Positions 2,011-42,483 of a stretch of 64,000 nucleotides of DNA are shown here, piece after piece. A program made the position numbers and the translations under genes. Origin of the DNA: an uncultured Planctomycetia bacterium (GTDB lineage Bacteria > Omnitrophota > Gorgyraeia > Tantalellales > Tantalellaceae); the NCBI GenBank assembly GCA_964527765.1, contig CAZGQR010000009.1:4579-68578 (forward strand). Direction: 5' to 3'. The notes beneath the pieces are model-generated. The model was not told where the DNA came from. It saw nothing but the letters and a program-made list of their open reading frames with translations, and ran no database searches. Every line of letters starts with the position of its first letter. Position 1 is the first letter of the stretch.

Positions 2011-3933
<1,923 letters not shown>

Positions 3934-4026
3934 TCTTACCTGACTGTTCTATAAGTAATGATATTGAATTTGATAGTAGTAATCATACCGGACGCGGTGC
4001 TATTGTAACATACTCCTCAAACACGG

Positions 4027-5103
4027 TCAACTGCGCCTTTTCCTGAAAATGATCTCATCGCCATGCTTGGTCACTCTTATTTTTCCTGGAAAATCCAGCG
4101 ATTTGTTCCTTTCCGCGGCTCTCAGGAAATAATCCATGTCCATCCAGTGCCGGTACGTGAGCTTCTTGATATTACCCCCGGCTCTCCTGAAAAGCTCTTT
4201 GAAAAGTTCTTTTCTCAGCGCTTTCGGCTGAAGAAGAATATCCTTGATCTTTATGCCGCTGGCGCGCGTCCCCTTAGAAAAGTTTTTTCTAACGGGGCCC
4301 GCATGCCTCTCGATGGCCTTTTTCTTCTCCGTATCAAGAAAGACAAGATCCTCCCTGAGGGTATCGGACAGGTTCACCAGGGACCGTTTAAGGCCCGGAT
4401 TATATTTTTCAAGAAGGGGCAATATCTCGTGGCGTACCCTGTTGCGCAAAAATCTAACGTCCAGGTTGGTCTTGTCTTCGACATATTTTGACCCGGTTTT
4501 TTTAAAAAAGTCCAGGACATCACGCCTCTCGACCCTTATCAGGGGGCGGATGATCCTTCGTCCGTCCTCGTACCTGACCGGGGGAATGCCGGTGATCCCG
4601 GCAGATGACGACCCGTAAATGATCCTCATCAGGACCGTCTCGGCCTGGTCGTCCATTGTATGCCCCGTGGCTATCACGTTGCATTTGTTGCGGGCGGCCG
4701 CCTCAAGCAGGAACGCGTATCTTTTTCCCCGGGCCTGTTCCTCGACCGAGATACCCTTTTTCCTCCCGGATCTCAGGTTTACTTTTTTATGGACGCATTT
4801 CAGCCCTGACTCCCCGGACAGTCTTTTCACGAATTCAGAATCGCGCCTGGACGCGGTCCCCCTGAGTCCGTGATCCATGTTCCCTACGACTATCTCCAGG
4901 TCCAGTTCCCTGCGGAACCGCAGGAGCGCTTCCAGAAGACATACGGAATCCGGGCCTCCTGATACCGCCACCAGCACCCTGTCTCCTTTATGAAGCATGT
5001 CGTACTGCTTTACGGCATCCCTTACCCTTTTTAAAAAAGCGGAACCGGATAGCCCCCGCCTGCCGGCGGCGGGTTTAGTCTTTTTTTGTTTTCTTCTTTT
5101 CAT
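4027..5103 (-). CDS. tilS: tRNA(Ile)-lysidine synthetase TilS
   Basis: PP-loop SGGPDS (VLVAVSGGPDSVCLL). ORF track extends to 5238 with an Arg/Lys-rich N-terminal extension overlapping queH. Start reassigned to internal ATG at 5103 (M46), ~20 aa before the PP-loop as in TilS. Conserved tilS-ftsH adjacency. Confidence 0.8.
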   Translation of the reverse strand: MKRRKQKKTKPAAGRRGLSGSAFLKRVRDAVKQYDMLHKGDRVLVAVSGGPDSVCLLEALLRFRRELDLEIVVGNMDHGLRGTASRRDSEFVKRLSGESGLKCVHKKVNLRSGRKKGISVEEQARGKRYAFLLEAAARNKCNVIATGHTMDDQAETVLMRIIYGSSSAGITGIPPVRYEDGRRIIRPLIRVERRDVLDFFKKTGSKYVEDKTNLDVRFLRNRVRHEILPLLEKYNPGLKRSLVNLSDTLREDLVFLDTEKKKAIERHAGPVRKNFSKGTRASGIKIKDILLQPKALRKELFKELFRRAGGNIKKLTYRHWMDMDYFLRAAERNKSLDFPGKIRVTKHGDEIIFRKRRS

Positions 5104-7948: not shown

Positions 7949-9931
7949 TTAGGCTGCCTCCTGTTCCTTCAGCATTTTCTTCAGCCTCGCGATCTGGTCC
8001 CTGTAAACGATCGCTTTCTCGAATTGCAGGTTCCTTGCCGCCTGTTCCATGTCGCTTTCAAGCTGAGCTATGACCTCCAGGATGTCGTACTCTTCTTCGC
8101 TTTCGCCGGTCACATCCTGGACTATCTCCTTGGCCCGCCTGTACGCCTCGATCCCGTCCTTCACGGCTTTCATGATCGTCTTCGGTTTGATGCCGTGCTC
8201 CTCGTTGAACTTGATCTGCCTTTCTCTTCTCGCGTTCGTGACGTCAATGGTCTTCTGCATCGATTCGGTCATGTTGTCCGCGTATAACAATACCTGGCTG
8301 TTCACGTTCCTCGCGGCCCTCCCGGCTACCTGTATCAGCGAAGTCGCGCTCCTCAGGAAACCTTCCTTGTCGGCATCCAGCACGGCGACCAGCGAGACCT
8401 CCGGAAGGTCCAGGCCCTCCCGGAGCAGATTGATGCCGACCAGGCAATCGAATTTCCCCAGCCGGAGGTCGCGTATTATCTCTATGCGGTCCAGCGCGTT
8501 GATCTCGGAATGAAGGTACCGCACGCGCAGTTTCATCTCTTTGAGAAAACGCGTGAGCTCTTCCGCCAGGCGCTTGGTCAAAGTGGTCACCAGGGTCCTC
8601 TCGTTCCTGGCGGCGCGTTTTTTTACTTCCTCTATCAAATCGTATATCTGGTCTTTCGTCGGGCGCACGGCGATCGGCGGGTCCACCAGGCCCGTAGGAC
8701 GTATGACCTGCTCGGCAACTACCTTGCTTTGCGAGATCTCGTAATTCGTGGGGGTCGCCGAAACAAAAAGGATCTGTTTCACTATTCCCATGAATTCATC
8801 GAATTTCAGGGGTCTATTGTCCAGCGCCGACGGCAAACGAAAACCGTAATCGACCAGCGTCCTCTTCCTGGCCTGGTCGCCGTTATACATCGCGTGCAGC
8901 TGTGGAAGCGTAACATGCGACTCGTCTATAATAACAAGGAAATCGTCGCCGAAATAGTCCAGGAGGCACCAGGGACGGCTGCCAGGCGCTCTGCCGGAGA
9001 GATGGCGCGAGTAGTTCTCTATGCCGCTGCAATAACCCAGCTCACCCAGCATGTCCATATCGTATTTGGTCCTCGTTTCCAGGCGCTGCGCCTCCAGGAG
9101 TTTTCCCTCGCCTCTCAGCTCGGCAAGACGTTCTTCCAGTTCGGCGGCGATCAATTTCAGCGCGCTTTTTACCTTGTCCTCGGTGGTAACAAAATGTCTC
9201 GCGGGATAGATCGCTACCCTGTCGAGTTTCGCCAGGACGCCGCCCGAAACCGGGTGTATCTCGGACACGCGGGTGACCTCATCGCCGAAAAATTCCACCC
9301 GCAGCGCCGTTTCCTTGTACGCCGGCAGTACTTCCACTATATCCCCGCGGACCCGGAACTTTCCCCGCTGGAGCTCCATGTCATTCCGTTCATACTGTAT
9401 ATCCACCAGCTTTTTCAGGAATTCCTCCCTGGCAAGGGGCTGGGATGATTCCACGTTCACCAGCATGGTCGAATAATCTTCCGGGGACCCGAGGCCGTAG
9501 ATACAGGACACGCTGGCGACTATCAAAACGTCACGGCGCGAAAACAGCGAACTTGTCGCGGACAACCTGAGACGGTCTATATCTTCGTTGATCGAAGCGT
9601 CTTTTTCGATATACACATCGGTCTGCGGGACATACGCCTCCGGCTGGTAATAGTCATAATAACTGACGAAATACTCAACGGCGTTCTTCGGGAAGAAATC
9701 CCTGAACTCCGCAAAAAGCTGCGCCGCCAGGGTCTTGTTGTGGGAAATGACCAGCGTAGGCCTGTTGATAAGCTCCACGATATTGGCCATCGTGAAGGTC
9801 TTGCCGCTGCCGGTAACGCCAAGGAGCGTCTGAAAGGGGTTTCCTTTTTCAATGGATCCCGTGATCTTCTCGATCGCTTCCGCCTGATCGCCCGCAGGTT
9901 CAAGATCAGTGATCAGCTTAAATCTTTCCAT
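7949..9931 (-). CDS. uvrB: excinuclease ABC subunit B
   Basis: 660 aa. Helicase motifs (GVTGSGKT, DESH), UvrB interaction and C-terminal UvrC-binding coiled coil. Confidence 0.95.
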   Translation of the reverse strand: MERFKLITDLEPAGDQAEAIEKITGSIEKGNPFQTLLGVTGSGKTFTMANIVELINRPTLVISHNKTLAAQLFAEFRDFFPKNAVEYFVSYYDYYQPEAYVPQTDVYIEKDASINEDIDRLRLSATSSLFSRRDVLIVASVSCIYGLGSPEDYSTMLVNVESSQPLAREEFLKKLVDIQYERNDMELQRGKFRVRGDIVEVLPAYKETALRVEFFGDEVTRVSEIHPVSGGVLAKLDRVAIYPARHFVTTEDKVKSALKLIAAELEERLAELRGEGKLLEAQRLETRTKYDMDMLGELGYCSGIENYSRHLSGRAPGSRPWCLLDYFGDDFLVIIDESHVTLPQLHAMYNGDQARKRTLVDYGFRLPSALDNRPLKFDEFMGIVKQILFVSATPTNYEISQSKVVAEQVIRPTGLVDPPIAVRPTKDQIYDLIEEVKKRAARNERTLVTTLTKRLAEELTRFLKEMKLRVRYLHSEINALDRIEIIRDLRLGKFDCLVGINLLREGLDLPEVSLVAVLDADKEGFLRSATSLIQVAGRAARNVNSQVLLYADNMTESMQKTIDVTNARRERQIKFNEEHGIKPKTIMKAVKDGIEAYRRAKEIVQDVTGESEEEYDILEVIAQLESDMEQAARNLQFEKAIVYRDQIARLKKMLKEQEAA

Positions 9932-10820
9932 CTTTTAAAACTATCTCCAGGCTGAAATCGATCGGCCGCACGAAACCGGTAATAGCTCCGACGGAGATGA
10001 TCTCTATGCCCGTCCCGGCATAATCCCTGATGTTCTCCTCGCTGATGCCGCCCGAGACCTCAAAAAGCGCCTTTTCTTCCATGTTCTTTTTCTTGCGTAG
10101 AGCGACCGCATCGCGGACCATCTGCGGGGACATGTTGTCCAGCATGATGACATCGGGGCTTTCCTCAAGGGCGTATTCGCATTCCTTCAACGTTTCTACT
10201 TCTATTTCTATCCTGACGTTCTTCTGCGCCTTTTCCCTGGCGCGCCTGATGGCTTCTTTTATGATGACCTCGCTGTCAGAGGTCTTCATCTGCATGGCCA
10301 GCGCCCTTAAATGATTATCTTTTATCAGGACCATGTCCCATAATCCCTCTCTGTGGTTGCGGCCGCCGCCGACGGTGACCGCGTACTTCTGAAGGTATCT
10401 GTGAAGGGGGATCGTTTTCCGCGTGTCATATACCTTCGCCTTCATCCCTGCCGTTCTATCGACCATCTCCCGCGTCTTCGTGGCCACCCCGCTCATCATC
10501 CCCAGGAAGTTAAGCGCTGTCCTTTCCCCCTTCAGGATCGCCCGCGCCTCGCCTTCGATGAACGCTATCTCCTGTCCGGGCTCGATAAGATCACCGTCCT
10601 TTACCATGGGACGAAACCTGAGGCTGTATTCTGCGGCGGCAAAGACCCTCTCGATGACCTCCATGCCGCAGGCCACGCCCTTTTCATGCGACATGATACA
10701 GGCATCCGTATCAAGGAACCTGTCAATGACCGCCTGCGACGTGATATCGCCTCCCCGGATATCCTCTTTCAGCGCGGCCCGGACGATCCTATCCACTCTT
10801 TTCTTGTCCAGGTCTTTCAT
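9918..10820 (-). CDS. nadC: nicotinate-nucleotide pyrophosphorylase (quinolinate phosphoribosyltransferase)
   Basis: QPRTase family sequence (ILKGERTALNFLGMMSGVAT, VYDTRKT, LIKDNH). Start moved to ATG 10820 (MKDLDKK), giving a 4-nt overlap with rluB. Confidence 0.85.
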   Translation of the reverse strand: MKDLDKKRVDRIVRAALKEDIRGGDITSQAVIDRFLDTDACIMSHEKGVACGMEVIERVFAAAEYSLRFRPMVKDGDLIEPGQEIAFIEGEARAILKGERTALNFLGMMSGVATKTREMVDRTAGMKAKVYDTRKTIPLHRYLQKYAVTVGGGRNHREGLWDMVLIKDNHLRALAMQMKTSDSEVIIKEAIRRAREKAQKNVRIEIEVETLKECEYALEESPDVIMLDNMSPQMVRDAVALRKKKNMEEKALFEVSGGISEENIRDYAGTGIEIISVGAITGFVRPIDFSLEIVLKDGKI

Positions 10821-11536
10821 GCTCCCAGTTCCCTCAATCTTTCGATTTCCTTTCGGGTGAGCTCTCTGAACTCGCCTTCCTTCAGCCCCTTCAATGTCAG
10901 CCCCGCATATCCGGTGCGCTTGAGCTGCACGACCCTGGCGCCGCATGCTTCGAACATCCGCCGGACCTGTCTCTTGCGGCCCTCATGCAGCTTTATCCTG
11001 TACACCCCTGCCTTGCCGCTCTTCCTTTCCAGCTTCACCCTGCAGGGGGATGTAAGCTTTCCGTCGATCCTGATACCGCGTTCGATCTTCCGGATATCGC
11101 TCCCCGTAATAAAAGGCTCGACCGTGACGGCGTATTCCTTCTCTGTTTCAAAACTGGGATGCGCGAGCCTGTGCGTGAGTTTTCCGTCATTGGTGACTAT
11201 CAGGATCCCGGTCGTATCCTTGTCCAGGCGTCCCACGGGATAAAGCCGGGCGTTTATGTCCCTGAAAAAATCCGTCACTTTTTTCCGGCCGTGCGTATCG
11301 CTGACGGTAGAGATAACACCTTTCGGCTTGTAAAATAAAAAATGATATTTCTTCTCCTCGCCGGAAAGAGGCCGGCCGCTGACCAGTATTTCGTGCTTTG
11401 CCGGATCAAGCCTGAACCCCTTGTCGGTCACGGGCAGCCCGTTCACCCTTACTTTACCGTTCTCGATAAGCTGTGCCGCGCGTCTTCTCGAAGCTACACC
11501 GGCATGCGCGAGAACCATCTGCAACCTTTTTTTCAT
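10817..11536 (-). CDS. rluB: rRNA pseudouridine synthase, RluB/RsuA family (S4 + PseudoU_synth_2)
   Basis: N-terminal S4 domain (RLQMVLAHAGVASRRRAAQLIENGKVRVNG) and catalytic VGRLDKDTTG motif. Confidence 0.8.
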   Translation of the reverse strand: MKKRLQMVLAHAGVASRRRAAQLIENGKVRVNGLPVTDKGFRLDPAKHEILVSGRPLSGEEKKYHFLFYKPKGVISTVSDTHGRKKVTDFFRDINARLYPVGRLDKDTTGILIVTNDGKLTHRLAHPSFETEKEYAVTVEPFITGSDIRKIERGIRIDGKLTSPCRVKLERKSGKAGVYRIKLHEGRKRQVRRMFEACGARVVQLKRTGYAGLTLKGLKEGEFRELTRKEIERLRELGA

Positions 11537-11537
11537 A

Positions 11538-14228
11538 CTACTCGATCGCTGCGAGGTTTTCCTTTAAATTCTCTACCTGTTCCCGGAACCTGTCCCTTTT
11601 CGCCTTTTCCTTCCGGACGACATCTTCGGGAGCTTTGTCCAGGAACGACTTGTTCGCGAGTTTCTTGTCTATGCCGCCGAGGTATCGCTCGAGATCTTCC
11701 ATCTTTTTGGCTATACGGGCCTTTTCCTTTTCCACATCAACGGTTCCGCCGAGGGGTATGAACAACTTTACTCCCCCGATCAGCGCCGCGACAGACTGAT
11801 CCGGCCTGGAGACATCTTTTCCAAGGGCGCTGATCTCGCAGCGGGCCAGCCGCTCGATATAAAGGGTATTCTCCTCCAGGAGGCGCTGATCCTCCCGGCT
11901 GCCGGCGCTCAAAAGGATACCCATCCGGACATCATGCCCGATGTTCCAGAACGCCCTGACATTGCGCACAGCGGTGATGATCCCGATCAATTTCTCCATA
12001 TTGCCGAGGGCTTCCGCGTCATCATGCTCCTTATCGGCCTCCGGCCAGTCAGCTGTCATTATCCACCTGGCCGGAGTGCCTGGTATCTTCTGCCAGATCT
12101 CCTCGGTTATGAACGGCATGAAGGGGTGCAAAAGACGCAAGGCCCCGGCGAGGACCTTCACCAGGACCTTCCGCGTCGTCTCCTTGTCATCCGAAAGCTT
12201 GGATATCTCCAGATACCAGTCGCAGTATTTATGCCATATAAAATCGTACAGCGCCGAGGCGGCATCGCTGAACCTGTAAACTTCAAGGCTTCTTGTGACT
12301 TTTTCCACCGTCCTGTTCAGGCTGCTCAGTATCCAGCGGTCCGCAAGGGTCAGTTTCCCCTTATCGATCCCGCCCCCCGGGGCCGATCCTTCAAGGTTCA
12401 TCAAAACGTACCGTGAAGCGTTCCATAGCTTGTTCGCGAAGTTCCGCCCCAGCTCAAACTTGTCCCTGGACAAAAAGACGTCCTGCCCCTGGCTGGTTAT
12501 GGAGATGATACTGAAACGCAACGCGTCGCTGCCCACATCCCCTATGATGTCAAGCGGGTCTATGACATTGCCGAGCGACTTGGACATCTTGGTCCCCGTG
12601 GAATCGCGCACCGTGCCGTGGATATAGACGTCCCTGAAAGGTATATCCTTCCGGAACTTCAGTCCCGCCATGATCATCCTGGCAACCCAGAAAAATATGA
12701 TCTCCTGCGCGGTGACCAGCGCGTCGGTGGGATAAAACACTTTCAGCTCTTTTGTCTTCTCCGGCCAGCCCAGCGTGGAGAAAGGCCACAGCCAGGAACT
12801 GAACCAGGTATCCAGGACGTCCGGATCCTGCTCCATATCCGTCCCTCCGCATGCCGGACATTTCTCCGGCGGTTCGGTACCGACGTACACTCCCCGCTTT
12901 TTCGGCCCGGTTATCTCGACATCACGGGCGTTCTCGTATTTCAGGCAATCCCTGCAATACCAGGCCGGTATGCGGTGCCCCCACCATATCTGGCGGGAGA
13001 TACACCAGTCACGGATATTTTCCATCCAGTTCAGGTACACCTTCGTCCATCGTTCGGGATAGAACTTGATCTTTCCGTCACGAACGACCTTGATGGCGTC
13101 TTTTGCAAGCGGTTTCATCTTCACGAACCATTGCCTGGAAAGGCGCGGCTCCACGACGGTATGACAGCGGTAGCAATGCCCGATAGCGTGCCCGTGTTCT
13201 TCCGCCCGGATAAAAAGCCGCCTTTGCTTCAGGTCTTCGACTATTGCCTCGCGGCATTCGAACCTGTCCATGCCCTCATAATCGCCGCCGAGCGCGTTTA
13301 TCCTGCCGTCGGGGTGCATCACATTTATATTTTCCAATCCGTGTTTTTTGCCGAGTTCGAAGTCCACGGGATCATGGGCCGGGGTGACCTTTAAAGCCCC
13401 CGTTCCGAATTCCGGGTCCACGTCCTCGTCGAATATCACCTGCAGTTCCCTTTTAAGGATGGGCAGGATCAGCTTCTTGCCCTTAAGATGCGAATACCGG
13501 GGGTCTTTCGGGTTGACCGCCACGGCCACGTCCCCGAGCATCGTCTCGGGGCGGGTGGTAGCCACCACGATGTAGTCCTCGCCTTCCTTTTCCAGTTTTT
13601 CTCGTCCCTTGACCGGGTATTTTACGTAATAGAGCATCCCTTCGACTTCGCGGTGCTCGGCTTCCTCGTCGCTGAGGGCCGTTCCGCAGTGCACGCACCA
13701 GTTGATGATATAGTCGCCTTTGTAGAGCAGGCCGTCCTCATATAAACGCACGAAAACTTCCCTGACCGCGTTTGAAAGGCCTTCGTCCATGGTAAAACGC
13801 GTGCGTTCCCAGTCGCAGGAGCACCCCATCCTTTTCAGCTGGTGTATGATGGTGCTGCCGTATTCCTCCCTCCACTGCCATACTTTTTCCAAAAATTCCT
13901 CCCGGCCCATTTCCGACCTCTTAAGCCCTTTCGCGGCGATCTCCCGCTCGACGACATTCTGGGTCGCTATGCCGGCGTGGTCGGTCCCGGGCATCCAGAG
14001 CGTATTGAAACCCTGCATGCGTCTCCACCTGATAAGTATGTCCTGGAGGGTGTTGTTGAGGGCATGCCCCATGTGAAGTATACCCGTGATGTTGGGAGGA
14101 GGGATCACTATGCAGTAAGGCGCTCGGCTGCTGTTCTCATCGGCGCGGAAGAGCTTTTCCGATGACCACGAGTTATAGATCTCCTCTTCCTTTTTCTGGG
14201 GATCGTACCTGGTAGGGATCTCTTTCAT
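11538..14228 (-). CDS. valS: valine--tRNA ligase
   Basis: 896 aa. Class I HIGH (HMGHALNN) and KMSKS (KMSKSLGN) motifs, C-terminal coiled-coil. Confidence 0.95.
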   Translation of the reverse strand: MKEIPTRYDPQKKEEEIYNSWSSEKLFRADENSSRAPYCIVIPPPNITGILHMGHALNNTLQDILIRWRRMQGFNTLWMPGTDHAGIATQNVVEREIAAKGLKRSEMGREEFLEKVWQWREEYGSTIIHQLKRMGCSCDWERTRFTMDEGLSNAVREVFVRLYEDGLLYKGDYIINWCVHCGTALSDEEAEHREVEGMLYYVKYPVKGREKLEKEGEDYIVVATTRPETMLGDVAVAVNPKDPRYSHLKGKKLILPILKRELQVIFDEDVDPEFGTGALKVTPAHDPVDFELGKKHGLENINVMHPDGRINALGGDYEGMDRFECREAIVEDLKQRRLFIRAEEHGHAIGHCYRCHTVVEPRLSRQWFVKMKPLAKDAIKVVRDGKIKFYPERWTKVYLNWMENIRDWCISRQIWWGHRIPAWYCRDCLKYENARDVEITGPKKRGVYVGTEPPEKCPACGGTDMEQDPDVLDTWFSSWLWPFSTLGWPEKTKELKVFYPTDALVTAQEIIFFWVARMIMAGLKFRKDIPFRDVYIHGTVRDSTGTKMSKSLGNVIDPLDIIGDVGSDALRFSIISITSQGQDVFLSRDKFELGRNFANKLWNASRYVLMNLEGSAPGGGIDKGKLTLADRWILSSLNRTVEKVTRSLEVYRFSDAASALYDFIWHKYCDWYLEISKLSDDKETTRKVLVKVLAGALRLLHPFMPFITEEIWQKIPGTPARWIMTADWPEADKEHDDAEALGNMEKLIGIITAVRNVRAFWNIGHDVRMGILLSAGSREDQRLLEENTLYIERLARCEISALGKDVSRPDQSVAALIGGVKLFIPLGGTVDVEKEKARIAKKMEDLERYLGGIDKKLANKSFLDKAPEDVVRKEKAKRDRFREQVENLKENLAAIE

Positions 14229-15826
14229 CTGCGTTTCTTTTTCTTCGGCCTTTTTTCGTCCTTCACGAATTTGTATTCGATGGAATCCTTGAGGGCAAGC
14301 CAGCTCGCTTCAATGACGTTCTCGGAAACACCGACCGTCCACCATGAGTCGGTCGCGTCCTGGGACTGGATAAGGACGCGGACTTTGGCGGCGGTGCCCG
14401 CTTTCTCGTCCAGGACCCTGACCCTGAAATCCGACAGGTGCATCTCGTTCAAAGACGGGTAGAACGCTGTCAGGGCCTTGCGGAGGGCCTGGTCCATGGC
14501 GTGGACAGGGCCGTCGCCCAGTGAAACGGTATGTTTCAACCTGTCGCCGATCTTGAGTTTTATCGTGGCTTCCGAAATGATGGGACCGTCGCCCCGCTTT
14601 TCGACGATGACCCTGAGATCCTTCATCTCGAAATGTTCCTTGAAGATCCTTGAGGCCCGATTCATCAAAAGCATGAGCGATGCCTCGGCCAGCTCGAACT
14701 GGAAGCCTTCTTTCTCCATGTCCTGCACGCGCGAAAGGATGTCCCTGGCCTTGTCGGATTTTTTCCTGATCCTGAACCCGATCTCCCTGGCCTTCTCTAT
14801 TATGCTTGACTTCCCGGAAAGCTCTGAGATAAGCATCCTCCGCCTGTTCCCGACCTTTTCCGGCTCTATATGCTCGTAGGTCCTCGGGTTCTTCAGTATC
14901 GCATTGACGTGGACGCCCGCTTTATGGGCAAAAGCGCTCCTGCCGACATACGGCTGCGTGTCCCGCTGTTTCACGTTGGAGATCTCCGCGATATACCTTG
15001 ACGCCTCGGTAAGTTCCTTGAACTCGATATTGGTAAGACAATCCAGGCCCATTTTAAACTTCAGGGTGGGCAGGATCGACACGAGGTCCGCGTTGCCGCA
15101 TCTCTCGCCGTAACCGTTAAACGTTCCCTGGACATGCGTGCACCCCGCCTGCACGGCGGCAATGGAGTTGGCCACGGCCATGTCGGCGTCGTTGTGAACG
15201 TGGATACCGAGCGGTTTTTTTATCTTTTCCGCCACTTCCTCGACGATCTCGAAGATCTGGCTGGTAAGCGTGCCCCCGTTCGTATCGCAGAGTACCAGGG
15301 TCCCTGCGCCGCCGTCAAGGGCCGCTTTAAGGGTCTCCATGGCATATTCGGGATTGTCCTTGTACCCGTCGAAAAAATGCTCGGCGTCAAAGATCACGCG
15401 CCGGCCCTTTTTTCTCAGGTACCTGACGGAATCCTCGATCATCCTGAGGTTCTCCCTCAGCGTGGTCTTCAGGACGGTCCTCACGTGCAGGTCCCAGCTT
15501 TTCCCGAATATCGTCAGGTATTTCGTTTTCGCCTTCAAGAGGCCTTCTATAACGGGATCCGAGGCCGTTCTCGCGCCCGCGCGCCGCGTGCTGCCGAACG
15601 CCACGAGTTTGGAATTCTTCAGTTTCAGGGACCTGGCCGCTTCCCTGAAGAACTCGTCATCCTTGGGATTTGAGCCGGGCCAACCGCCCTCGATAAAATC
15701 GATGGTCAGTTCGTCCAGTTTCCGGGCTATCCGGATCTTATCCTTGACCGAAAAGGATATCCCTTCCGACTGCGCCCCGTCCCTTAAAGTCGTGTCGTAG
15801 ATCTCGACTTTTTTCTTGTTTTTCAT
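14225..15826 (-). CDS. cimA: (R)-citramalate synthase, LeuA-family (Geobacter-type CimA)
   Basis: [20 protein letters not shown]...[12 protein letters not shown] matches the LeuA-related citramalate synthase subgroup. Start reassigned to ATG 15826 ([11 protein letters not shown]), a 4-nt overlap with lysC. Confidence 0.65.
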
Positions 15827-17067
15827 TTTGACCTCTTTTTCGTCTTTTTTCCGAGCCCGAACGCCTTGTGAACGATCTTCGCGGCCTCTTCGGCATGTCT
15901 CCTGGCAATGACACACGATATCTTGATCTCGCTGGTAGATATCATGCCGATATTTATCTTTTTTGAAGCGAGCGCGCTGAACATCCTCGCCGCGACCCCC
16001 GAATGGCTGCGCATGCCTATCCCCACGACCGATACCTTGGCGATATTTTTATCATACCTGACCCCCTTGGCCCCGATCTCCTTAACGATTCTTTTCATCA
16101 CGTCATGGGCCCTGCTCAGGTCCTTTTTATCCACGGTAAAAGAGATATCCGTCGCCTTCGTCCGGGATATGTTCTGTATGATCATATCCACGTTGATATC
16201 GGCTTTCGCCAGCTGCTCGAACAGTCTGCTGGCTTCTCCCGGCCGGTCCGGAACATCGCACACCGTGACTTTCGCTTCATCCTTGTTCACGGTAACATTA
16301 CGCACCAAGACCTCTTCCATAGCTTTGACCTCCTTGGTTATCAAAGTCCCGTCCTCGTAAGAAAAACTTGACCGCACATGCATCGGAACGTTGAACTTGC
16401 CGGCGACTTCCACGCTTCTTGCCTGCATGACCTGGGCGCCGAGTGACGCCATCTCGAGCATTTCCTCATAACTCACGCTGTTCAGCTTGCGCGCGTCCCG
16501 GACTATCCTAGGGTCGGCCGTATAAACGCCTTTGACGTCAGTGTAGATCTCACACATCTCCGCCTTCAGGGCCTTTGCCAGCGCCACGGCCGTTATGTCC
16601 GATCCCCCCCTTCCAAGGGTAGTGATCTCCTGGTCCAGGTTCATGCCCTGGAACCCGGCGACGATGACTATCCTGCCTCTATCAAGTTCTTTTTTGACCC
16701 TGCTCGTACCGACGTCTATTATCCTTGCCTTCGTGTGGGACGAATCGGTGATTATGCCCACCTGGGCGCCGGTGAAAGAAATGGCCTCCTGTCCGAGTTT
16801 ATGCAAAGCCATGGCCAGAAGCGCGACCGATATCTGCTCCCCGGTCGACATGAGCATATCAAGCTCTCTCTCCGCCGGTCTTTTGTTGATCCCGTGGGCA
16901 AGGTCCAATAGCTCATCGGTCGTATCGCCCAGCGCCGAGACCACGACGACCACGTCATATCCGTTCTTCTTGCAGGCGGTGACCCTCCTGGCCACTCCCC
17001 TGATCCTCTTCGGGTTAGCCACGCTGGTCCCGCCGTATTTCTGAACTATGATCCCTTTTTTAGCCAT
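15823..17067 (-). CDS. lysC: aspartate kinase (with C-terminal ACT domains)
   Basis: 414 aa. [16 protein letters not shown] amino-acid-kinase N-terminus, tandem ACT region at C-terminus. Confidence 0.9.
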
Positions 17068-18265
17068 TCCCGCCCCTCAATAAGATCCTCATGAGCTCCG
17101 ATCCCTGGACCAATCCCATGCTGCCGGCCTTCGCCGACTTTTCAGTGAACACCGCGACATCATCAGGACTGATCCCCTTGCCGGCTATCGCAAAAGGCAC
17201 CGGATCCGCCGTGTGCGTCCTTTTCTTTATCGGCGTGGGGTGATCCGGCAGGATCAGGACCCTGTAATCGCATCTTTCGGAAAGTTCTTCAATGATCCTG
17301 CCCGTTATCTTGCTGTCAAAGTTCTCTATCGCCTTTATTTTTTCCATGATGTCCCCGTTATGCCCCGCCTCGTCAGGGGCTTCAACGTGGACAAAGACCA
17401 TGTCTTTCTTTTTGAGTATATCAAGCGCCGCTTCCGCCTTGCCTTCGTAATTCGTATCGTAATACCCGGTCGCTCCGGGGACTTCGGCGACCTCGAGTCC
17501 CAGCACACGCCCCAGTCCCTTGAGCAGGTCCACCGCGGATATTATACCTCCGGAAATACCGTAGGCGTCCTCGAATCCGGGTATGTCGGGTTTTTTGCCC
17601 TGGCCCCAGATCCATATCATGTTGGCGGGATTCTGCCCCAGGTCGACCCGCACCTTGTTGATGTCAATATCCCTCAGTATCCCCTTTGACCGCTCCATGA
17701 GCTCGACAAGCCGGGGTTCTTTCGGCAGGTGCCCGGAAATGGACTTATCCAGTATGTCATGCGGCGGATAGCACGGTACTTTCGACAACCTGTCCGCTTC
17801 TTCCGCAGAATCGCAATGCACCACCAGCAGATTGCGGTAACTCGTCCCCGTATAGAAACTGAACCTTTCGCTGCCAAGTTCCCTGTTCAGCAGATCTACC
17901 AGAACAGCCGCCTCTTTTGTCGTGATATGGCCGGCGCTGTAATCAAGCATCTTGCCGTCGGACACGGTCACCGTATTGAACCGGAAGGCCACGTCGCGTT
18001 CGGTAAGGTCCACGCCGAGATTGGCGGCTTCCAGAGGGCCGCGCCCGCAGTAATATTTCCGCGGGTCATACCCAAGTATGGAAAGGTTGGCCACGTCGCT
18101 TGCGGGCGTCATTCCCCTGGGAACGTTCTTCGCCATGCCCACTACGCCTTTTCTTGCGATCATGTCCATGTTCGGCGCTTTAGCCGCTTCCATGCAGGTG
18201 CGGTCATTGATCTCCTCAAGAGGTAAGCCCGCCATACCGTCAGGCACGAGCACAATATACTTCAT
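17060..18265 (-). CDS. archaeal-type cofactor-independent phosphoglycerate mutase homolog (AP superfamily, COG3635). Probable non-orthologous homoserine kinase
   Basis: 401 aa with ApgM-family sequence ([13 protein letters not shown]..., metal-ligand [10 protein letters not shown]). Sits exactly in the thrB slot between thrC and lysC with 4- and 8-nt overlaps. No canonical GHMP-kinase thrB in the cluster. Confidence 0.8.
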
Positions 18266-18267
18266 AT

Positions 18268-19329
18268 CTATAAACCAGCCTCCCTCACCACATCTTCAAG
18301 TTTCGCATCCACCACAACGGGGTGCTTTACGCATTTAATGGCCCTGTCAGGGTCTTTCAAGCCGTGTCCGGTCAGCACACAGACGATATCTTTCTCATGA
18401 CCCGGCTCGCAGGGCGGAAAATATCCTTCTCCTGCCTTTTTTAAAATACCCGCTACACCGGCAGCGGACGCCGGTTCGGCGAATATCCCTACCTTGCCGG
18501 CCAGCAATTTGTAAGCGTCTATTATCTCATCATCGGTGACCTTTTCTATGAGTCCCCCTGATTCATCCCGGGCGGCTTCGGCCTGTTTCCAGCTTGCCGG
18601 GTTGCCTATCCTTATGGCGGTAGCGATCGTCTCAGGATCTTTTATCACGCGTTTCTCCACTATGGGAGCCGCCCCGGCCGCCTGAAAACCCAGCATCTTC
18701 GGCAGTTTGTCCGTCTTGCCCTTTTCCTTGTATTCCCGGTACCCTTTCCAGTAAGCAGTAATATTCCCCGCATTACCCACAGGCAGAGCATGATAGTCGG
18801 GCGCGTGCCCCAGGCGGTCACAGATCTCAAAAGAAGCGGTCTTCTGCCCTTCTATCCTGTAGGGGTTGATCGAATTGACAAGCGTTACCGGATATTTCTC
18901 GGTCAATTCACAAACTATTTTCAGGGCGTCGTCAAAATTCCCCTTGATGGCTATCACCTTCGCGCCGTGTATAAGCGCCTGGGCCAGCTTGCCGAGAGCT
19001 ATCGCCCCCTCGGGAATGACCACGATACATTTTATCTTTGCCCTTGCCGCGTATGCCGCCGCTGAAGCGGAAGTATTTCCGGTGGACGCGCAAGCCACGG
19101 CGCCTGAGCCTTCCTCCACGGCCTTGGAAACAGCCATCGTCATGCCCCTGTCCTTAAAACTGCTCGTGGGATTAAGCCCCTCATATTTTAACCACACGTT
19201 GTAGCCGGGCCCTATGATCTCCGCGATAGGGTCAGCCTTGATGAGCGGCGTATCCCCTTCCTGCAGGGTGATCACGGGTGTTTTCCCGTTCACGGGAAGA
19301 TGTTCCTTATAGTGTTCGATAACCCCCAT
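18268..19329 (-). CDS. thrC: threonine synthase
   Basis: 353 aa, PLP-lysine motif SFKDRG. Confidence 0.9.
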
Positions 19330-19349
19330 TTTTCTCCTTCGCCTAAGCG

Positions 19350-20660
19350 CTACTCTTCCTCTTCTTCTATCCTGATGGCCACGGTTCTATCGGTCACGCA
19401 TTCCAGCTTATCTATCTTGGTAATGGCCTTGCGCATGCTGCCTTCCCTGGCCTCATGGGTCAGTATTATGACGGGGACCCTCTCCCCTTCCTTGCGTTCT
19501 TCCTGTGAAACGCTGGCGATACTGATCTCGTTCTCCGCAAGGACCGAAGATATGCTCGCCAGGACGCCGGGCTTATCGATAACGGAGAATCTCAGGTAAT
19601 AAGGGACCGACAGTTCCTCTATCTTGCTGATTTTTTTGCTTTCCACGGCATAGTCCAGCTTATACGGCATGGGATTGTTGGCGCCGATAAATGCAACGTG
19701 CCTGGCGATCTCAACAATATCCCCGACAACGGAGCTTGCGGCTGGTTCCTTGCCGGCGCCCTTGCCGAAAAGAAGGGACTCTCCCGCGAGATCACCTTTG
19801 ACGAAAATAGCGTTATCCGCTCCTTTTACATCCGAAAGAAGGTGGCTCGACCGGAGCAGAGTAGGATGAACCCTGAGCTGTAATCCGTCAGGCGCATTTT
19901 TTGCGATAGCGAGAAGTTTGACGCTGTAACCCCAGCGGCTCGCGTTCTGTATATCCTGCGGCCCTATACCGGCGATCCCTTCAGTATAAATATCATCGAG
20001 AGAAACATCCACCCCAAAACCCAGGAGTGAAAGTATGGCCAGTTTATGGGCACTGTCTTTGCCGCTTATATCGAGTTTCGGGTCTTTTTCGGCAAGACCT
20101 ACTTCCTGCGCGATCTTGAGCGCCTCGTCAAACATACATCCGCGGTCCTCCATCATGGTCAGTATAAAATTCGTAGTTCCGTTCAGGATGCCGTAGATTA
20201 TATTGATGTTATTCCCCACAAGACTTTCGCATAAAGTCCTGATAATAGGTATGGCTCCGCCCACGCTGGCTTCAAATCTTATGAACACCCCGTTATCGTG
20301 CGCGGCGGCGAAAACATCTTTCCAGTGCTCGGAAAGCAATGCCTTGTTCGCGGTCACGACATGCTTCCTGTTCTGCAGGGCCTTTAATATGATGTCCTTT
20401 GCCGGGTGCACCCCGCCGATAAGTTCGACGATGATGTCGATATCCTTGTCCTTGATCAGGTCTTCCGCGGAAGTGGTTTTTATGATATCTTCCCGGCAGT
20501 TGATGCTGTTCAACAATTTCTTGTCCTTATCACATATCCCCATGATCCGAACAGAAACACCGGTTCTCCGGGCGATCAGCTGGCCGTTGTCCGTGATGGC
20601 ATCAAGAACGCCTCTTCCGACGGTACCCAATCCAATCAGTCCGATATTTACAGTTTTCAT
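19350..20660 (-). CDS. hom: homoserine dehydrogenase with C-terminal ACT domain
   Basis: [21 protein letters not shown]-binding N-terminus. Start set to ATG 20660. The ORF-track extension to 20780 would run into the tRNA-Pro gene and a structured leader. Confidence 0.85.
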
Positions 20661-20785
20661 CTTATCCCCATTCGCGTAATAGTCGTTTACCTTGCTCCTA
20701 CCAGGGGGCCCCTCCGCCCGGTGTGGATCCTCCCTGTACGGAGCATGGTAAACGACTTTCATGCGCCATGCGCCGTACAAAAGAA

Positions 20786-20864
20786 TGGTCGGGACGGCCG
20801 GATTCGAACCGGCGACCCCTAGTCCCCCAGACTAGTGCGCTAAACCAGACTGCGCTACGTCCCG
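20786..20864 (-). tRNA. tRNA-Pro (anticodon GGG)
   Basis: Minus-strand sequence CGGGACGTAGCGCAGTCTGGTTTAGCGCACTAGTCTGGGGGACTAGGGGTCGCCGGTTCGAATCCGGCCGTCCCGACCA folds as a cloverleaf: 7-bp acceptor, D-arm GCGC/GCGC, anticodon stem CTAGT/ACTAG with loop CUGGGGG (U33, G34G35G36, G37), T-arm GCCGG-TTCGAAT-CCGGC, encoded CCA. Confidence 0.85.
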
Positions 20865-20865: not shown

Positions 20866-21852
20866 TTATTCGTAATCTTCTTCCTTCGGACTGCGTGTCA
20901 TGAGTTCACTGACCGCAGCGCCGGGATCTTTGCCCTTGTAAAGAACCTCGTATACTTTCTGGGTTATGGGCATCTCAACGCCGTATTTCTTCGCGAGCTC
21001 ATGGGCCGACTTGCAGGTATCCAAACCCTCCACGACCATTTCCGTCCCGGCCAGGATCTCGTCGATATTCCCGCCCTTGCCGACCTCGGTCCCGAACCAG
21101 CGATTCCTGCTGTGAGCGCTGATACAGGTGGTCGCCAGATCCCCCAGGCCGCTAAGGCCCCTGAATGTCGATCTCTCGGCTCCCATTTTTACTCCAAGCC
21201 GGGTTATCTCGGCAAGGCCTCTGGTCAGGATCGCGGCTTTGGAATTTGTCCCGAAACCGAGGCCATCGGAGATACCCGCGGCTATCGCGATTATATTCTT
21301 TAAAGCGCCCCCCATTTCGACGCCGGTAACATCTCCTGAAGTATATACCCGGAAACGTTCGGTCATCAGGAAGTCCCGGACCTCTTTCTTCCATTCACCG
21401 TCACCGGCAACAACCACCGCCGTGGGAACATTGCGCGCGACTTCAAACGATATGCTCGGCCCGGATATAACGCCGATCCGGCTGTTCCGGAAGTATTCAG
21501 CCAGTATCTCCGAGGGGCGTTTCAGGGAACCGGTCTCTATCCCTTTGGTAGCGCTGACAATATAAATAAAATCAGCGCCAGTGAACCTGTCGAGAACCGA
21601 ACGTAAATACTTGCAGGGAACGGCGAAAAGAGCGTATTCCGCTTCCTTAACCGCCGCGTCATCGGATGTTATCTTTAGATCGCGGGGCAAAGAAACCCCT
21701 TCAAGAAACTTGGTATTTTCCCTGCGCCTGTCAAGATGCTCGGCATATTCCGGAGAATAGCTCCAGAGGGTAGTATCTACCCCCTTGGAGTGCAGCAGGA
21801 GAGCCAACGCGGTCCCCCAGCCACCGTCCCCTATAACGCTTACTTTGCTCAT
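20866..21852 (-). CDS. gpsA: NAD(P)H-dependent glycerol-3-phosphate dehydrogenase
   Basis: 328 aa. MSKVSVIGDGGWGTALA Rossmann N-terminus, GpsA family throughout. Confidence 0.9.
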   Translation of the reverse strand: MSKVSVIGDGGWGTALALLLHSKGVDTTLWSYSPEYAEHLDRRRENTKFLEGVSLPRDLKITSDDAAVKEAEYALFAVPCKYLRSVLDRFTGADFIYIVSATKGIETGSLKRPSEILAEYFRNSRIGVISGPSISFEVARNVPTAVVVAGDGEWKKEVRDFLMTERFRVYTSGDVTGVEMGGALKNIIAIAAGISDGLGFGTNSKAAILTRGLAEITRLGVKMGAERSTFRGLSGLGDLATTCISAHSRNRWFGTEVGKGGNIDEILAGTEMVVEGLDTCKSAHELAKKYGVEMPITQKVYEVLYKGKDPGAAVSELMTRSPKEEDYE

Positions 21853-21980: not shown

Positions 21981-22020
21981 AAATATAAAAAAAGGGGCGG
22001 CGTTAGCCGCCCCTTTTCAG
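21981..22020 (-). terminator. Rho-independent terminator (bidirectional architecture)
   Basis: GGGGCGGC-GTTA-GCCGCCCC perfect 8-bp GC stem (21994-22013). On the minus strand it is followed by TTTTTTTATATTT, on the plus strand by TTTT. Lies just downstream of the minus-strand orphan genes. Confidence 0.7.
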
Positions 22021-22192: not shown

Positions 22193-22543
22193 TTAACCGT
22201 CTATCTGGATCCTCAGTTCATTGACATATACGATCTTATAGACCGTCTTTCCCCAGATAACAAAAAAATCACCGAGCACCTTGCAGATAATCTTATTCTC
22301 TCCGCTTTGCGTGTCAGCCTGCCTGAGGATATGACAATCCTTCCTGCAGCTGTTCCTGCTCTCCGCGCGCATCCAGTTCCTGAGCTCCTCTCCGTTCTTG
22401 GAACTGAACTTTTCTTTTATGAAATACTTGCATATCCACTTCCTGGCGACCCTTGCCTCCGTGCGGTCGCTGATCTCCTCCAGGGATATTTCGCGTTTAC
22501 GCGGATTATTTCCAAGTATGTCGCGATAATAAAGCTTTTTCAT
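22193..22543 (-). CDS. hypothetical protein, 116 aa, no recognisable family (orphan in AT-richer island)
   Basis: ORF with GAGG RBS 5 nt before ATG, own candidate promoter (TTGCAA-16-TATACT at 22631-22658) and downstream terminator. Four Cys, basic. Inserted between plsY and gpsA. Confidence 0.5.
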   Translation of the reverse strand: MKKLYYRDILGNNPRKREISLEEISDRTEARVARKWICKYFIKEKFSSKNGEELRNWMRAESRNSCRKDCHILRQADTQSGENKIICKVLGDFFVIWGKTVYKIVYVNELRIQIDG

Positions 22544-32688: not shown

Positions 32689-33495
32689 TTAAGTTGTGCC
32701 ATGGACCGCCCTTGCAACGGACCTGGCGAACGCCCCCACCTTCTTCACCAGAAGGTTTTTATCCGCCAGGTTTTTCTCGATCACCCTGATTATGGCGCTC
32801 CCGACGATTATGCCGTCAGAGGCCCCGACGATCTCCCTCGCCTGGGCGGGATTGGAAATGCCGAACCCCACGCACACAGGTTTCGCCGTCATCTTTTTCA
32901 GCTTCTTTACATCGTTTTTCAGCTCGTCGGAAAGTGATCTTCTCGCGCCTGTCACTCCCGTCAGGGACACATAATAAATAAATCCGCGGGAACAGCCCGC
33001 TATCTTTCTGAACCTTCCCGGAGGCGTTGTAGGCGCGGCGAGCATGATAACGTGAAAATCCTCTTTATCCGCCATGCCCGTCAGCTCCCCGGACTCCTCC
33101 ATGGGAAGATCGGGCACTATGATGCCATCCGCTCCCGAGGCCTTCGCGTCCCTGATGAAACGGCTGATACCGTAATTGAAGATAATATTGTAATAGGTCA
33201 TGAAAACCAGGGGAACCCGGACCTCCCGCCTCAGCTGCCCGACCATGTCCAGGACTTTCCTTACGGTACATCCGGCTTCAAGCGAACGCTGTACGGCTTT
33301 TTGTATCGTCGGCCCGTCCGCCAGGGGATCCGAGAACGGTATCCCCAGCTCTATGATATCCGCGCCTGCTTTTGCCAGGGAAGAGACTATCCTTTTGGTC
33401 GTCTTCATGTCGGGATCCCCGACGGTCACGTAAGGGATAAAGGCCTTCTTCTTTTCTTTCTTCAATCTCCTGAACGTCTCATCGATCCTGTTCAT
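32689..33495 (-). CDS. trpA: tryptophan synthase alpha chain
   Basis: 268 aa. FIPYVTVGDP, ELGIPFSDPLADGPTIQ signature. Confidence 0.9.
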   Translation of the reverse strand: MNRIDETFRRLKKEKKKAFIPYVTVGDPDMKTTKRIVSSLAKAGADIIELGIPFSDPLADGPTIQKAVQRSLEAGCTVRKVLDMVGQLRREVRVPLVFMTYYNIIFNYGISRFIRDAKASGADGIIVPDLPMEESGELTGMADKEDFHVIMLAAPTTPPGRFRKIAGCSRGFIYYVSLTGVTGARRSLSDELKNDVKKLKKMTAKPVCVGFGISNPAQAREIVGASDGIIVGSAIIRVIEKNLADKNLLVKKVGAFARSVARAVHGTT

Positions 33496-33593
33496 ATTTC
33501 CCGTCCGCCTTTCACATATGAAAATAAACGGGACTGGTCTATTCCCGACCTTATGCTGCTACAGCAGACCTGTCCCGCCCTTCAACAGCTACA

Positions 33594-34796
33594 CTACTTG
33601 ATATACCTCTTCATTATGTCAATATCCTTATCCCCTCTGCCCGACAGGCACAGAACGATTATATCCCTTTTCTTCGTCTTTCTTGCCAGCCTGGTCAGGT
33701 ACTGCACCGCGTGCGCGGTCTCCAGAGCCGGGATGATACCTTCGGTCTCGGAGAGGAGTCTGACCCCTTCAAGGGCTTTTTTATCATCCACCGACACGTA
33801 CTCGGCCCTTCCGATCCGCTTGTAATACGCGTGTTCCGGCCCGACCCCCGGGTAGTCGAGGCCCGCGGACACCGAATGCGCCAGGCGCACCTGGCCGTCA
33901 TCGTCCTCCAGCAGAAAACTCTTGCTCCCGTGAAGCACGCCGACCCTGCCCTTCATCAGGGCGGCGGCGTGACGGCCGGTCTTCAAGCCGAACCCGGCGG
34001 CTTCAACCCCGATGAACACTATCTTCCTGTCGTTAAAGAACGGATGAAAAAGCCCGATGGAATTGCTTCCTCCCCCGACGCATGCCACCAGATGAGTGGG
34101 AAGCCTGCCTTCCTTGCGCATTATATCCTTGCGTACTTCCTTGCCTATGACGGTCTGAAAATCCCTCACCATCATCGGATACGGATGAGGCCCTACGACG
34201 GATCCTATGATGTAATGCGTATTGCGAACGTTAGTGACCCAGTCCCTTATCGCCTCGTTGGTGGCGTCCTTAAGCGTGCAGGACCCGCTGGACACGGGAA
34301 TGACCCTGGCTCCCATGAGCTTCATGCGGAACACGTTCAGGTTCTGCCGCTCTATATCCTCGGTCCCCATGTACACGTCGCACTTAAGCCCGAACAGCGC
34401 CGCCACGGTGGCGGTGGCAACACCGTGCTGGCCGGCCCCGGTCTCGGCGATCACGCGCTCCTTGCCCATGTGCACGGCGAGAAGCGCCTGTCCTATGGTG
34501 TTGTTGATCTTATGAGCCCCTGTATGCAAGAGGTCTTCCCGTTTAAGATATATCTTTCCCCCGCCCAGTTTTTTCGTCAGTTTCTCCGCGTGATACAGAG
34601 GGGTCGGCCTTCCGGCATATTCCTTAAGATAATATTCAAGTTTTTTCCTGAAAGAAGCGGTGCGGGTTATTTTCCTGTATGCCGCGGTAAGCTCCCTTAA
34701 GGCAGGCATTAGCGTTTCCGGGACATACTCTCCGCCGAATATGTCAAAATATCCTTTATTATCGGGCAGTTTACGTTTTTTTCGCATTTTCGACAA
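33594..34796 (-). CDS. trpB: tryptophan synthase beta chain
   Basis: 400 aa. PLP site [19 protein letters not shown]. Confidence 0.95.
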
Positions 34797-35457
34797 ACTC
34801 CTTTAAAAGTTTTTCATCTTTTTTCCCGGGGGATTTTTCCACGCCGCTCGAAACATCGACCCCGTAAGGACGCACGGCCTTTACGGCATCCGAGACGTTC
34901 TCCGGGCGAAGCCCTCCGGCAATAAAAAACGGTTTCTTTATCCTGTCCTTCTCCCTTATCAGAACTCCCCAGTCAAAACTTTCACCCGTGCCGCCGGGGA
35001 TATCGGGGTGAAACGTATCAAAAACGAAATAATCCGCGGCGTCGTAATCACCGGGGCCGTACTGCTTTTGAGCGGCATGCCCGTGGGGCAAGATCCGCTC
35101 TTTCACCTTAAAGGCTTTTATGATCTTCACCTGCCTGTGATATTTTTGCTCGAGTATCGTTCTTAAACTGCCGCAGTCTCCGGGTGTCTCACTGCCGTGA
35201 AGCTGCACGTGATCCAGGTCGCAGAACGAAACGGCTTCCGCGATCCTCTCGAGCTTCATATCCCTGAAAAGCCCGACCCGCCCGACCCTATTCTTGCAAT
35301 CCCCGGGAAGGCCCATGATAATGTTCCTGACGGCATCACCCTCAACAGCACGGGGTGTTCCCCCGATGAAGATAAACCCTATAAGGTCGGCCCCATAGTC
35401 GCAGGCTTTCCGGGCATCTTCCAGGTTTGTCACGCCGCATATCTTGACCTTGACCAA
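34771..35457 (-). CDS. trpF: phosphoribosylanthranilate isomerase
   Basis: [18 protein letters not shown]-barrel PRAI family, position between trpC and trpB. Confidence 0.85.
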
Positions 35458-35462
35458 TTTTA

Positions 35463-36239
35463 CTACTCCCGCATCAGGTTTCTTACTTTTTCCCCTATAT
35501 TCGTCGCCCGCATGAAGATCTCCCCTATAAGAACGGCATTGACGCCGAGACTTTTCAGGAACATCACCTGTTCATAGGTCTCGATCCCGCTTTCGGAAAC
35601 TATTATTTTGTTCTCGGGAATAAGATGGATCAGTCTCTGGGTAACGGAGACATCTACATCGAAGTTCACCAGATCCCTGTTGTTTATGCCTATTATCGCC
35701 GCGGGACTGTTCAGGGCTTTCTCGACTTCTTCTTCGTTATGCACCTCGACCAGCACATCCATGCCCAGTTCCTTGGCGATGCCGAAATAACGGTTCAGCT
35801 CCTCCTGGGTCAGGATATGCGCGATCAGAAGGATCGCATCCGCGCCGCTTGCGGCGGACTCATAGATCTGATACTCGTCTATGATAAAATCCTTTCTGAG
35901 AACGGGAATGGTCACCCTTTCCTTTACCATCGTGACGTATTCCAGTTTTCCGTCAAAGAACCGCTCGTCGGTCAGTATGCTTATGGCGCTGGCGCCGGCA
36001 GCCTGATAAGTGAGCGCGATCTTGAGGGGGTTGAACTTGGCGCGAATGACGCCTTTCGAAGGGGAGCTTTTCTTGATCTCCGCTATAAGATTGATATGTC
36101 CCTTCCTGGATATGTCTTTCTTGAACGTGCTCCTGATGTACATGGATCCCGCTCTTTTTTTGAGATCGTTCAAATGAACGCTTTTTTGCGCTTTGTCAAC
36201 TTCGCGCCTTTTCTCTTCTATTATCCTGGGTAATATCAT
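35463..36239 (-). CDS. trpC: indole-3-glycerol phosphate synthase
   Basis: 258 aa. [25 protein letters not shown] motifs. Confidence 0.85.
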
Positions 36240-37300: not shown

Positions 37301-37316
37301 CCTTTTACCTTCCTCC

Positions 37317-39352: not shown

Positions 39353-39379
39353 GTCGACGTCTCTCCTGATGTCAGGAAC

Positions 39380-39763: not shown

Positions 39764-39766
39764 TTA

Positions 39767-42468: not shown

Positions 42469-42483
42469 CTCTCCTCCCGTCTA

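Follow-up and report, generated by a model that had tools for sequence, protein, structure and literature searches.

An archaeal-type phosphoglycerate mutase homolog as a probable substitute for homoserine kinase in an Omnitrophota threonine operon

The 64-kb stretch of DNA analysed here (the window), part of contig CAZGQR010000009.1 of an uncultured Omnitrophota bacterium, carries a row of threonine-pathway genes on its minus strand. Between positions 14225 and 20660, the gene order is hom, thrC, a gene related to the archaeal-type cofactor-independent phosphoglycerate mutases (ApgM), lysC, and cimA. This order had been described in an earlier reading of the sequence (the original prediction), and each of the five co-directional genes was matched by curated models and Pfam; Table 1. 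The product of the ApgM-like gene is in all likelihood (with an estimated probability of about 0.85) a member of the HomK family, also named ThrB2 or TIGR02535, that supplies homoserine phosphorylation in place of the GHMP kinase ThrB. Family membership, the residue pattern, separation from the mutase clade, and the gene context were computed in this study. The function of two other members was taken from the literature, and we infer the same function, and its mechanism, for the window protein.

Table 1. Features of the threonine gene row and of the amino acid operons in the window (aa, amino acids; nt, nucleotides; scores in bits, with model cut-offs in brackets)
Feature	Position	Strand	Length	Model or tool and score	Pfam domains or remarks
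gpsA	20866-21852	minus			Directly upstream of tRNA-Pro(GGG)
tRNA-Pro(GGG)	20786-20864	minus		ARAGORN; Rfam RF00005 63.8	Upstream edge of the threonine row
Hairpin leader	20661-20785	minus	125 nt		Between tRNA-Pro and hom
hom, homoserine dehydrogenase with C-terminal ACT	19350-20660	minus	436 aa	NF004976 499.6 (205)	NAD_binding_3, Homoserine_dh, ACT
thrC, threonine synthase	18268-19329	minus	353 aa	TIGR00260 332.7 (167)	PALP
homK/thrB2 (ApgM-like)	17060-18265	minus	401 aa	TIGR02535 530.0 (446.3)	PhosphMutase, Metalloenzyme
lysC, monofunctional aspartate kinase, two ACT domains	15823-17067	minus	414 aa	NF005155 600.6 (346)	AA_kinase, ACT_9
cimA, citramalate synthase	14225-15826	minus	533 aa from ATG 15826	TIGR00977 751.2 (450)	HMGL-like, HCS_D2, LeuA_dimer
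valS, valine--tRNA ligase	11538-14228	minus	896 aa	NF004349 1226	
trpE, G, D, C, F, B, A	32689-39352	minus			Complete-looking
hisD, B, H, A, F	39767-43725	minus			Complete-looking

The Threonine Gene Row

With the ATG at 20660 taken as the start, residues 1-434 of Hom align with positions 2-429 of the 430 in profile NF004976, in support of this start codon. The junctions of the row were read directly from the sequence. The five genes had been thought to be fused throughout by 4-8-nt overlaps, but only two of the four junctions overlap. The end of homK contains the start of lysC in an 8-nt overlap (ATGGCTAA), and lysC and cimA share the 4 nt ATGA. A 20-nt spacer with an AAGGAG ribosome-binding site lies between hom and thrC, and a spacer of 2 nt between thrC and homK. 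The tight row runs past cimA into valS, through a further 4-nt overlap.

Gene calls of an identical contig place overlaps at 9 of its 19 junctions, including those of the unrelated pairs lepA/lepB, der/plsY, rlu/nadC, and nadC/uvrB. Because unrelated genes on the contig overlap so often, overlap alone is weak evidence of functional linkage, and it was rejected as evidence of coupling. The overlaps of such unrelated neighbors, of which there are many, measure 4-14 nt. Tight coupling had been put forward as strong contextual support for the function of the ApgM-like protein; the overlaps do not carry that weight, and the real contextual evidence is the conservation of the block across genomes (see below). 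Such common overlaps also lend some credit to a rival explanation, in which the protein is the organism's glycolytic cofactor-independent phosphoglycerate mutase, located by chance in a dense co-directional array.

The Pfam scan, which covered the minus-strand open reading frames (ORFs) of at least 150 aa in the window, revealed no GHMP kinase, and neither did a six-frame search of the window for the GHMP motif. A tblastn search of the window with Escherichia coli ThrB gave no match. The absence of a GHMP-type ThrB from the window, as originally noted, is thus borne out by three kinds of search. No asd gene was found in the window. The trp and his operons in the window indicate that the organism makes its own amino acids. 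No second phosphoglycerate mutase was detected by Pfam among the same ORFs, and neither thrB nor a mutase gene was found in the 10 kb past the left end of the window (about 74 kb covered in all). The lack of another mutase in this region favors the glycolytic explanation; it also fits a bifunctional enzyme, in which the homoserine phosphotransferase would double as the only phosphoglycerate mutase of the cell, with 2- or 3-phosphoglycerate as the phosphoryl donor.

Sequence Features of the ApgM-like Protein

Comparison with curated models separated the window protein from the structurally characterized archaeal mutases, 2zkt of Pyrococcus horikoshii and 3idd of Thermoplasma acidophilum. The window protein passes TIGR02535 with 530 bits (cut-off 446.3), whereas 2zkt (326) and 3idd (277) fail. 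The name of this model, "proposed homoserine kinase", confirms that the prediction mentioned for the family in the earlier reading was genuine. The same division was obtained with NF003242 (cut-off 426; window protein 552, 2zkt 327, 3idd 282), and the reverse with NF003104 (cut-off 489), which the two mutases pass (598 and 539, respectively) and the window protein fails (330.4). All three fail NF003160 (cut-off 468), with 213 bits for the window protein, 347 for 2zkt, and 284 for 3idd. At a broader level, the window protein passes the apgM subfamily model TIGR00306 (515 bits, cut-off 320) and matches PF10143 (176 bits) and PF01676 (166 bits). TIGR00306 and Pfam cannot separate the two functions, because both clades are included at that level.

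NF003242 bears the name "cofactor-independent phosphoglycerate mutase", and passing it, together with TIGR00306, might be read in favor of a glycolytic enzyme. The solved mutases fail NF003242 while the window protein passes, however, from which it follows that NF003242 covers the same clade as TIGR02535. The mutase name appears to be an inherited legacy label, spread by public annotation. The same label is found on all source-named homologs among the best 120 database matches (68-96% identity), every one of which is from Candidatus Omnitrophota. Several metagenomes have yielded the identical protein.

The window protein and the ApgM enzymes (2zkt and 3idd/3kd8) belong to the same Pfam fold family and share a serine nucleophile and a two-metal site. 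Sequence identity to the solved archaeal mutases is 34-35% over the full length, and the alignment shows the catalytic Ser56 and the metal ligands D9, D298, H302, D341, H342, and H351 to be invariant. The metal-site motif reported in the original prediction is present, at residues 293-302. Ser56 and the metal-ligand set are also unchanged at 80 of 80 related loci. This retention of every catalytic residue is what a glycolytic mutase would require, and the whole mutase apparatus would equally serve the bifunctional enzyme. Pfam revealed no GHMP domain in the window protein, whose relation to ThrB is one of analogy and not of homology.

The two groups differ at other positions. Glu295 of the window protein aligns with a lysine in 2zkt, 3idd, and all 30 sampled Thermoplasmata mutases, whereas glutamate occupies this position at 80 of 80 related loci and, when sequences are clustered at 50% identity, in 130 of the 150 best cluster representatives. 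Three further positions, Tyr109, Ser110, and His113, are all arginines in 2zkt, 3idd, and the Thermoplasmata mutases, such that residues 108-113 read D-Y-S-A-G-H in the window protein and D-R-R-A-G-R in the mutases. This split is clean across the 31 mutases compared. The loss of three substrate-facing arginines and a lysine argues against a glycolytic role and also against the bifunctional enzyme.

A neighbor-joining tree, in which the mutase set included 2zkt, 3idd, and Thermoplasmata sequences, resolved a mutase clade of 31 tips, all with lysine and with nothing else inside. The window protein was placed among 73 other tips, of which 70 have glutamate. The ApgM-like protein does not group with bona fide phosphoglycerate mutases, so that this half of the refutation condition set in the original prediction did not arise. 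HomK proteins form a side branch of the archaeal-type, cofactor-independent mutases.

Eight of the 50%-identity clusters consist of long proteins of 974-1123 aa (P0132, P0133, P0145, P0148, P0158, P0160, P0178, and P0249). In all six that were scanned, a HomK-like N-terminal domain is followed by approximately 600-700 residues without a Pfam match. In the three long homologs that were read, the Glu motif is preserved; in the tail, an acidic or lysine-rich low-complexity linker leads to a predicted membrane helix and a large region without matches. This last region looks extracellular, and the architecture as a whole is odd for a biosynthetic enzyme. The fusions were considered as Rosetta stones, but Pfam revealed no metabolic partner domain in the six scanned.

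Conservation of the Gene Context

A scan of one genome per species yielded 80 related loci, encoding proteins 48-85% identical to the window protein. They are mostly from Omnitrophota, with some from Auribacterota, Planctomycetes, Methanosarcina, and others. At 65 of the 80 loci, hom, thrC, or lysC lies beside the gene on the same strand. Either thrC or hom is directly upstream of homK at 37 of the 72 loci with enough flanking sequence; lysC is directly downstream at 33 of 67 loci, and within 2 kb at 47 of 67. The adjacency of homK and lysC is thus as well conserved as that of thrC and homK. The threonine-gene neighborhood is kept down to 48% identity and across phyla, and no threonine genes were found near the Lys-type mutase at two control loci (Thermoplasma and Ferroplasma).

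The full row of gpsA, tRNA-Pro, hom, thrC, homK, lysC, cimA, and valS recurs through the Omnitrophota. Most related Omnitrophota loci have the order gpsA, tRNA-Pro(GGG), hom, and cimA and valS are adjacent at most related loci. A slot beside thrC, hom, and lysC that is conserved to this extent is difficult to reconcile with chance placement of a glycolytic mutase. Together with the opposite model passes, the residue split, the tree, and the reported complementation of thrB by two members of the clade (bioRxiv 10.1101/2024.10.14.618325), it makes the glycolytic explanation very unlikely.

The context also bears on the identity of the substrate. A phosphotransferase of this family might act on a different hydroxy-amino acid, converting L-threonine to threonine O-3-phosphate for cobalamin synthesis or catalyzing a serine/phosphoserine reaction. 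The glutamate signature would select for an amino acid substrate, and not for homoserine specifically. Some members of the family are located in cobalamin operons: Dehre_1608 (CbiU) lies beside cob genes and was proposed to be an L-threonine kinase for cobalamin synthesis (PMC4285132), and two cobD-linked homologs that have the glutamate were likewise proposed to be threonine kinases (bioRxiv 10.1101/2024.10.14.618325). The window gene, in contrast, lies in a threonine operon, and no cobalamin genes were found by Pfam among the minus-strand ORFs of the window. Its immediate conserved neighbors encode the enzyme that makes homoserine (Hom) and the one that uses phosphohomoserine (ThrC), and its score is above the trusted cut-off of TIGR02535. 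A substrate other than homoserine is, on this evidence, highly improbable.

Other arrangements were also observed. In Methanosarcina acetivorans (locus L089, 3106-6194), about 475 nt separate the Glu-type gene from a divergently transcribed aspartate kinase gene, its sole threonine-pathway neighbor. A divergent layout of a homK-type gene and an aspartate kinase gene was also seen at L067, L068, and L075. At 12 or more related loci, homK and lysC are separated by an extra gene of approximately 530-550 aa (L014, at 9216-10853, and L015, L016, L020, L024, L030, L032, L034, L040, L051, L061, and L065); the N-terminal motif of its product, DGVDYVPAKHW..LFGHHF, resembles on inspection by eye that of a CstA-type transporter. 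Inserts between thrC and homK at other loci resemble, again by eye, the CoaB, TPM, and LemA types. The inserted genes were considered as clues to the phosphate donor, and none was informative.

Relation to Characterized Members of the Family

Replacement of homoserine kinase by this family is already known, and the window protein is an ordinary member. The curators of TIGRFAMs proposed TIGR02535 as a homoserine kinase replacement (GapMind, Price 2020, PMC7311316). In the same study, mutants of Bacteroides thetaiotaomicron in BT2402 were found to need threonine, and the family was present in 15 of 29 prototrophs that lack ThrB (PMC7311316). A survey of 278 gut genomes named the family ThrB2 and showed that thrB2 and thrB are complementary in occurrence; in the Bacteroidetes, thrB2 shares an operon of three genes with thrC and a gene for a bifunctional Asd-Hom protein (Ashniev et al. 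2022, PMC9026213). BT2402 and DET_RS08350 of Dehalococcoides mccartyi were subsequently reported to rescue an E. coli thrB::kan strain, and the family was named HomK (Price et al., 2026 preprint version, bioRxiv 10.1101/2024.10.14.618325). The reading of the window protein as a homoserine kinase substitute is therefore supported, for a replacement that had been described and genetically validated in other bacteria. Omnitrophota go unmentioned in the HomK preprint (bioRxiv 10.1101/2024.10.14.618325).

The window protein is like other members of the HomK/ThrB2 family in model score, Ser56, metal ligands, the glutamate, and its threonine-gene neighbors. The numbering of D9 and S56 coincides in the window protein and BT2402. 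The operon differs: hom-thrC-homK-lysC-cimA-valS in the window, compared with the three-gene operon of the Bacteroidetes.

The substitution of glutamate for lysine was proposed to determine specificity, with E299 as the residue in BT2402 (bioRxiv 10.1101/2024.10.14.618325). We infer that E299 of BT2402 probably corresponds to E295 of the window protein, from the presence of lysine in the mutases and from residue spacing. The window protein also has a glutamate at 299, and with Glu at both 295 and 299 it carries the proposed specificity residue under either numbering. The ligand numbers D274, H278, and H325 given for BT2402 in the preprint do not fit a colinear alignment and were left unused. 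The sequence P0143 was considered as BT2402, since its numbering fits (D9, S56, E299, D346, and H347), and was rejected because its relatives are archaeal and not from Bacteroides.

Several points weigh against assigning homoserine phosphorylation to the window protein. The first attempt to show complementation by BT2402 failed (PMC7311316), and the rescue reported later was weak, with an increase in optical density of 0.14 after 47 h (bioRxiv 10.1101/2024.10.14.618325). The correspondence of E299 to E295 belongs here as well, as it depends on the lysine criterion and on spacing. The NCBI pipeline names the window protein "cofactor-independent phosphoglycerate mutase". The tight coupling of the genes adds little to the case, overlap being customary in this genome and not distinctive of this operon.

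Proposed Mechanism and Phosphoryl Donor

ThrB and HomK act at the same pathway step, and the window homK occupies the same slot beside thrC and hom as ThrB. ThrB is a GHMP kinase that uses ATP directly; the fold of HomK is unrelated and has no nucleotide-binding domain. Because such a domain is absent, ATP is unlikely to be the donor, and a phosphotransferase is more probable than an ATP-dependent kinase.

The mechanism outlined here was derived by analogy with the superfamily and with the model proposed for BT2402 in the preprint. LysC would produce aspartyl phosphate and Hom would produce homoserine, from which HomK would form O-phospho-L-homoserine. ThrC, the product of the gene immediately upstream of homK, would then convert O-phosphohomoserine to threonine, and CimA would open a threonine-independent route to isoleucine. 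HomK most likely works via a phospho-serine enzyme intermediate. The two-metal centre formed by D9, D298, H302, D341, H342, and H351 would activate Ser56, which would accept the phosphoryl group from the donor and pass it to the gamma-hydroxyl of homoserine. The change of lysine to Glu295, together with the loss of R109, R110, and R113, may adapt the pocket to a zwitterionic amino acid, in place of the anionic phosphoglycerate.

The HomK donor was argued not to be ATP, and probably not phosphoglycerate (bioRxiv 10.1101/2024.10.14.618325). By homology, phosphoglycerate is the most obvious donor, as would be required of the bifunctional enzyme introduced above. Glycerate kinase, however, is present in 53% of HomK genomes and in 67% of ThrB genomes, which argues against a phosphoglycerate donor, and D. 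mccartyi has a separate mutase alongside HomK (bioRxiv 10.1101/2024.10.14.618325). When the loss of the arginines and the lysine is added, an enzyme with both activities has little probability. A precedent for the formation of O-phosphohomoserine from a donor other than ATP is ThrH of Pseudomonas aeruginosa, which has no homology to HomK; as cited in the preprint, it is a phosphoserine:homoserine phosphotransferase that can replace ThrB (bioRxiv 10.1101/2024.10.14.618325). Phosphoserine as the HomK donor was offered there as speculation only (bioRxiv 10.1101/2024.10.14.618325).

We speculate that beta-aspartyl phosphate, the product of LysC, might be the donor, in which case LysC and HomK would jointly constitute an ATP:homoserine kinase, with aspartate as a recycled carrier. 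Aspartyl phosphate and O-phosphohomoserine are nearly isosteric, so that the donor and then the product could occupy the same Glu295-lined pocket, much as a mutase alternates between 3-phosphoglycerate and 2-phosphoglycerate. The conserved adjacency of homK and lysC, and the aspartate kinase gene as sole threonine-pathway neighbor in M. acetivorans, would fit this idea. The adjacency is equally explained by shared membership of the pathway, however, and we consider the idea unlikely.

Leader, Promoters, and Remainder of the Window

The leader between tRNA-Pro and hom forms a single long hairpin (-59.5 kcal/mol; z = -5.6 compared with 200 shuffles) that is not followed by a U-run. Close relatives have strongly folding leaders at the same place, with sequences that cannot be aligned and no consensus structure. 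The leader has no match in Rfam. A conserved riboswitch or attenuator was considered and rejected, given no Rfam family and no alignable or covarying structure among the relatives. The hairpin could be a terminator of the tRNA, a 3′ processing site, or a regulatory stem for the threonine genes.

Scans for internal promoters and terminators showed no excess over shuffled sequence (9 compared with 8.4, and 15 compared with 12.7, respectively). Because the counts match those of shuffled sequence, the operon boundaries are not set by these scans. The only strong terminator-like hairpin in the region is at 21989-22018 on the minus strand (13 bp, 8 of them G-C, and then a T-run), between a small RHH-like ORF (22193-22543) and gpsA. 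It is followed by a promoter-like site at 21893-21865, which may therefore mark where gpsA, the tRNA, and the threonine row begin to be transcribed.

All Pfam-confirmed genes of the window are on the minus strand, and the GC skew is negative throughout. The plus-strand ORFs of at least 150 aa that were compared overlap minus-strand genes and look like shadows. The trp and his genes stand back to back (32689-43725) and are followed by alaS, recA, a LigT-like phosphoesterase gene, and cinA. A giant minus-strand ORF of at least 4983 aa occupies 49020-64000 and is open to the right edge of the window; on a JGI contig with the same flanking genes, it is called as a 6184-aa product. It gave weak Pfam matches to APH/Kdo/Pkinase kinase-like domains (approximately residues 4536-4638), a HopA1 effector domain (3905-4027), and a GNAT domain (approximately 2798-2928).

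Implications

The locus extends a family of accepted function to one more phylum and to a well conserved operon form of six genes. Under the mutase label, a metabolic reconstruction of these uncultured bacteria would conclude that they are threonine auxotrophs with a glycolytic mutase, and neither conclusion is likely to be correct. Members seen here, among them those of Omnitrophota and Methanosarcina, are mislabeled by the name of NF003242; as solved mutases fail the model and HomK-type proteins pass it, the name deserves revision. The conserved translational coupling of homK and lysC suggests a cheap hypothesis for the donor, namely aspartyl phosphate.

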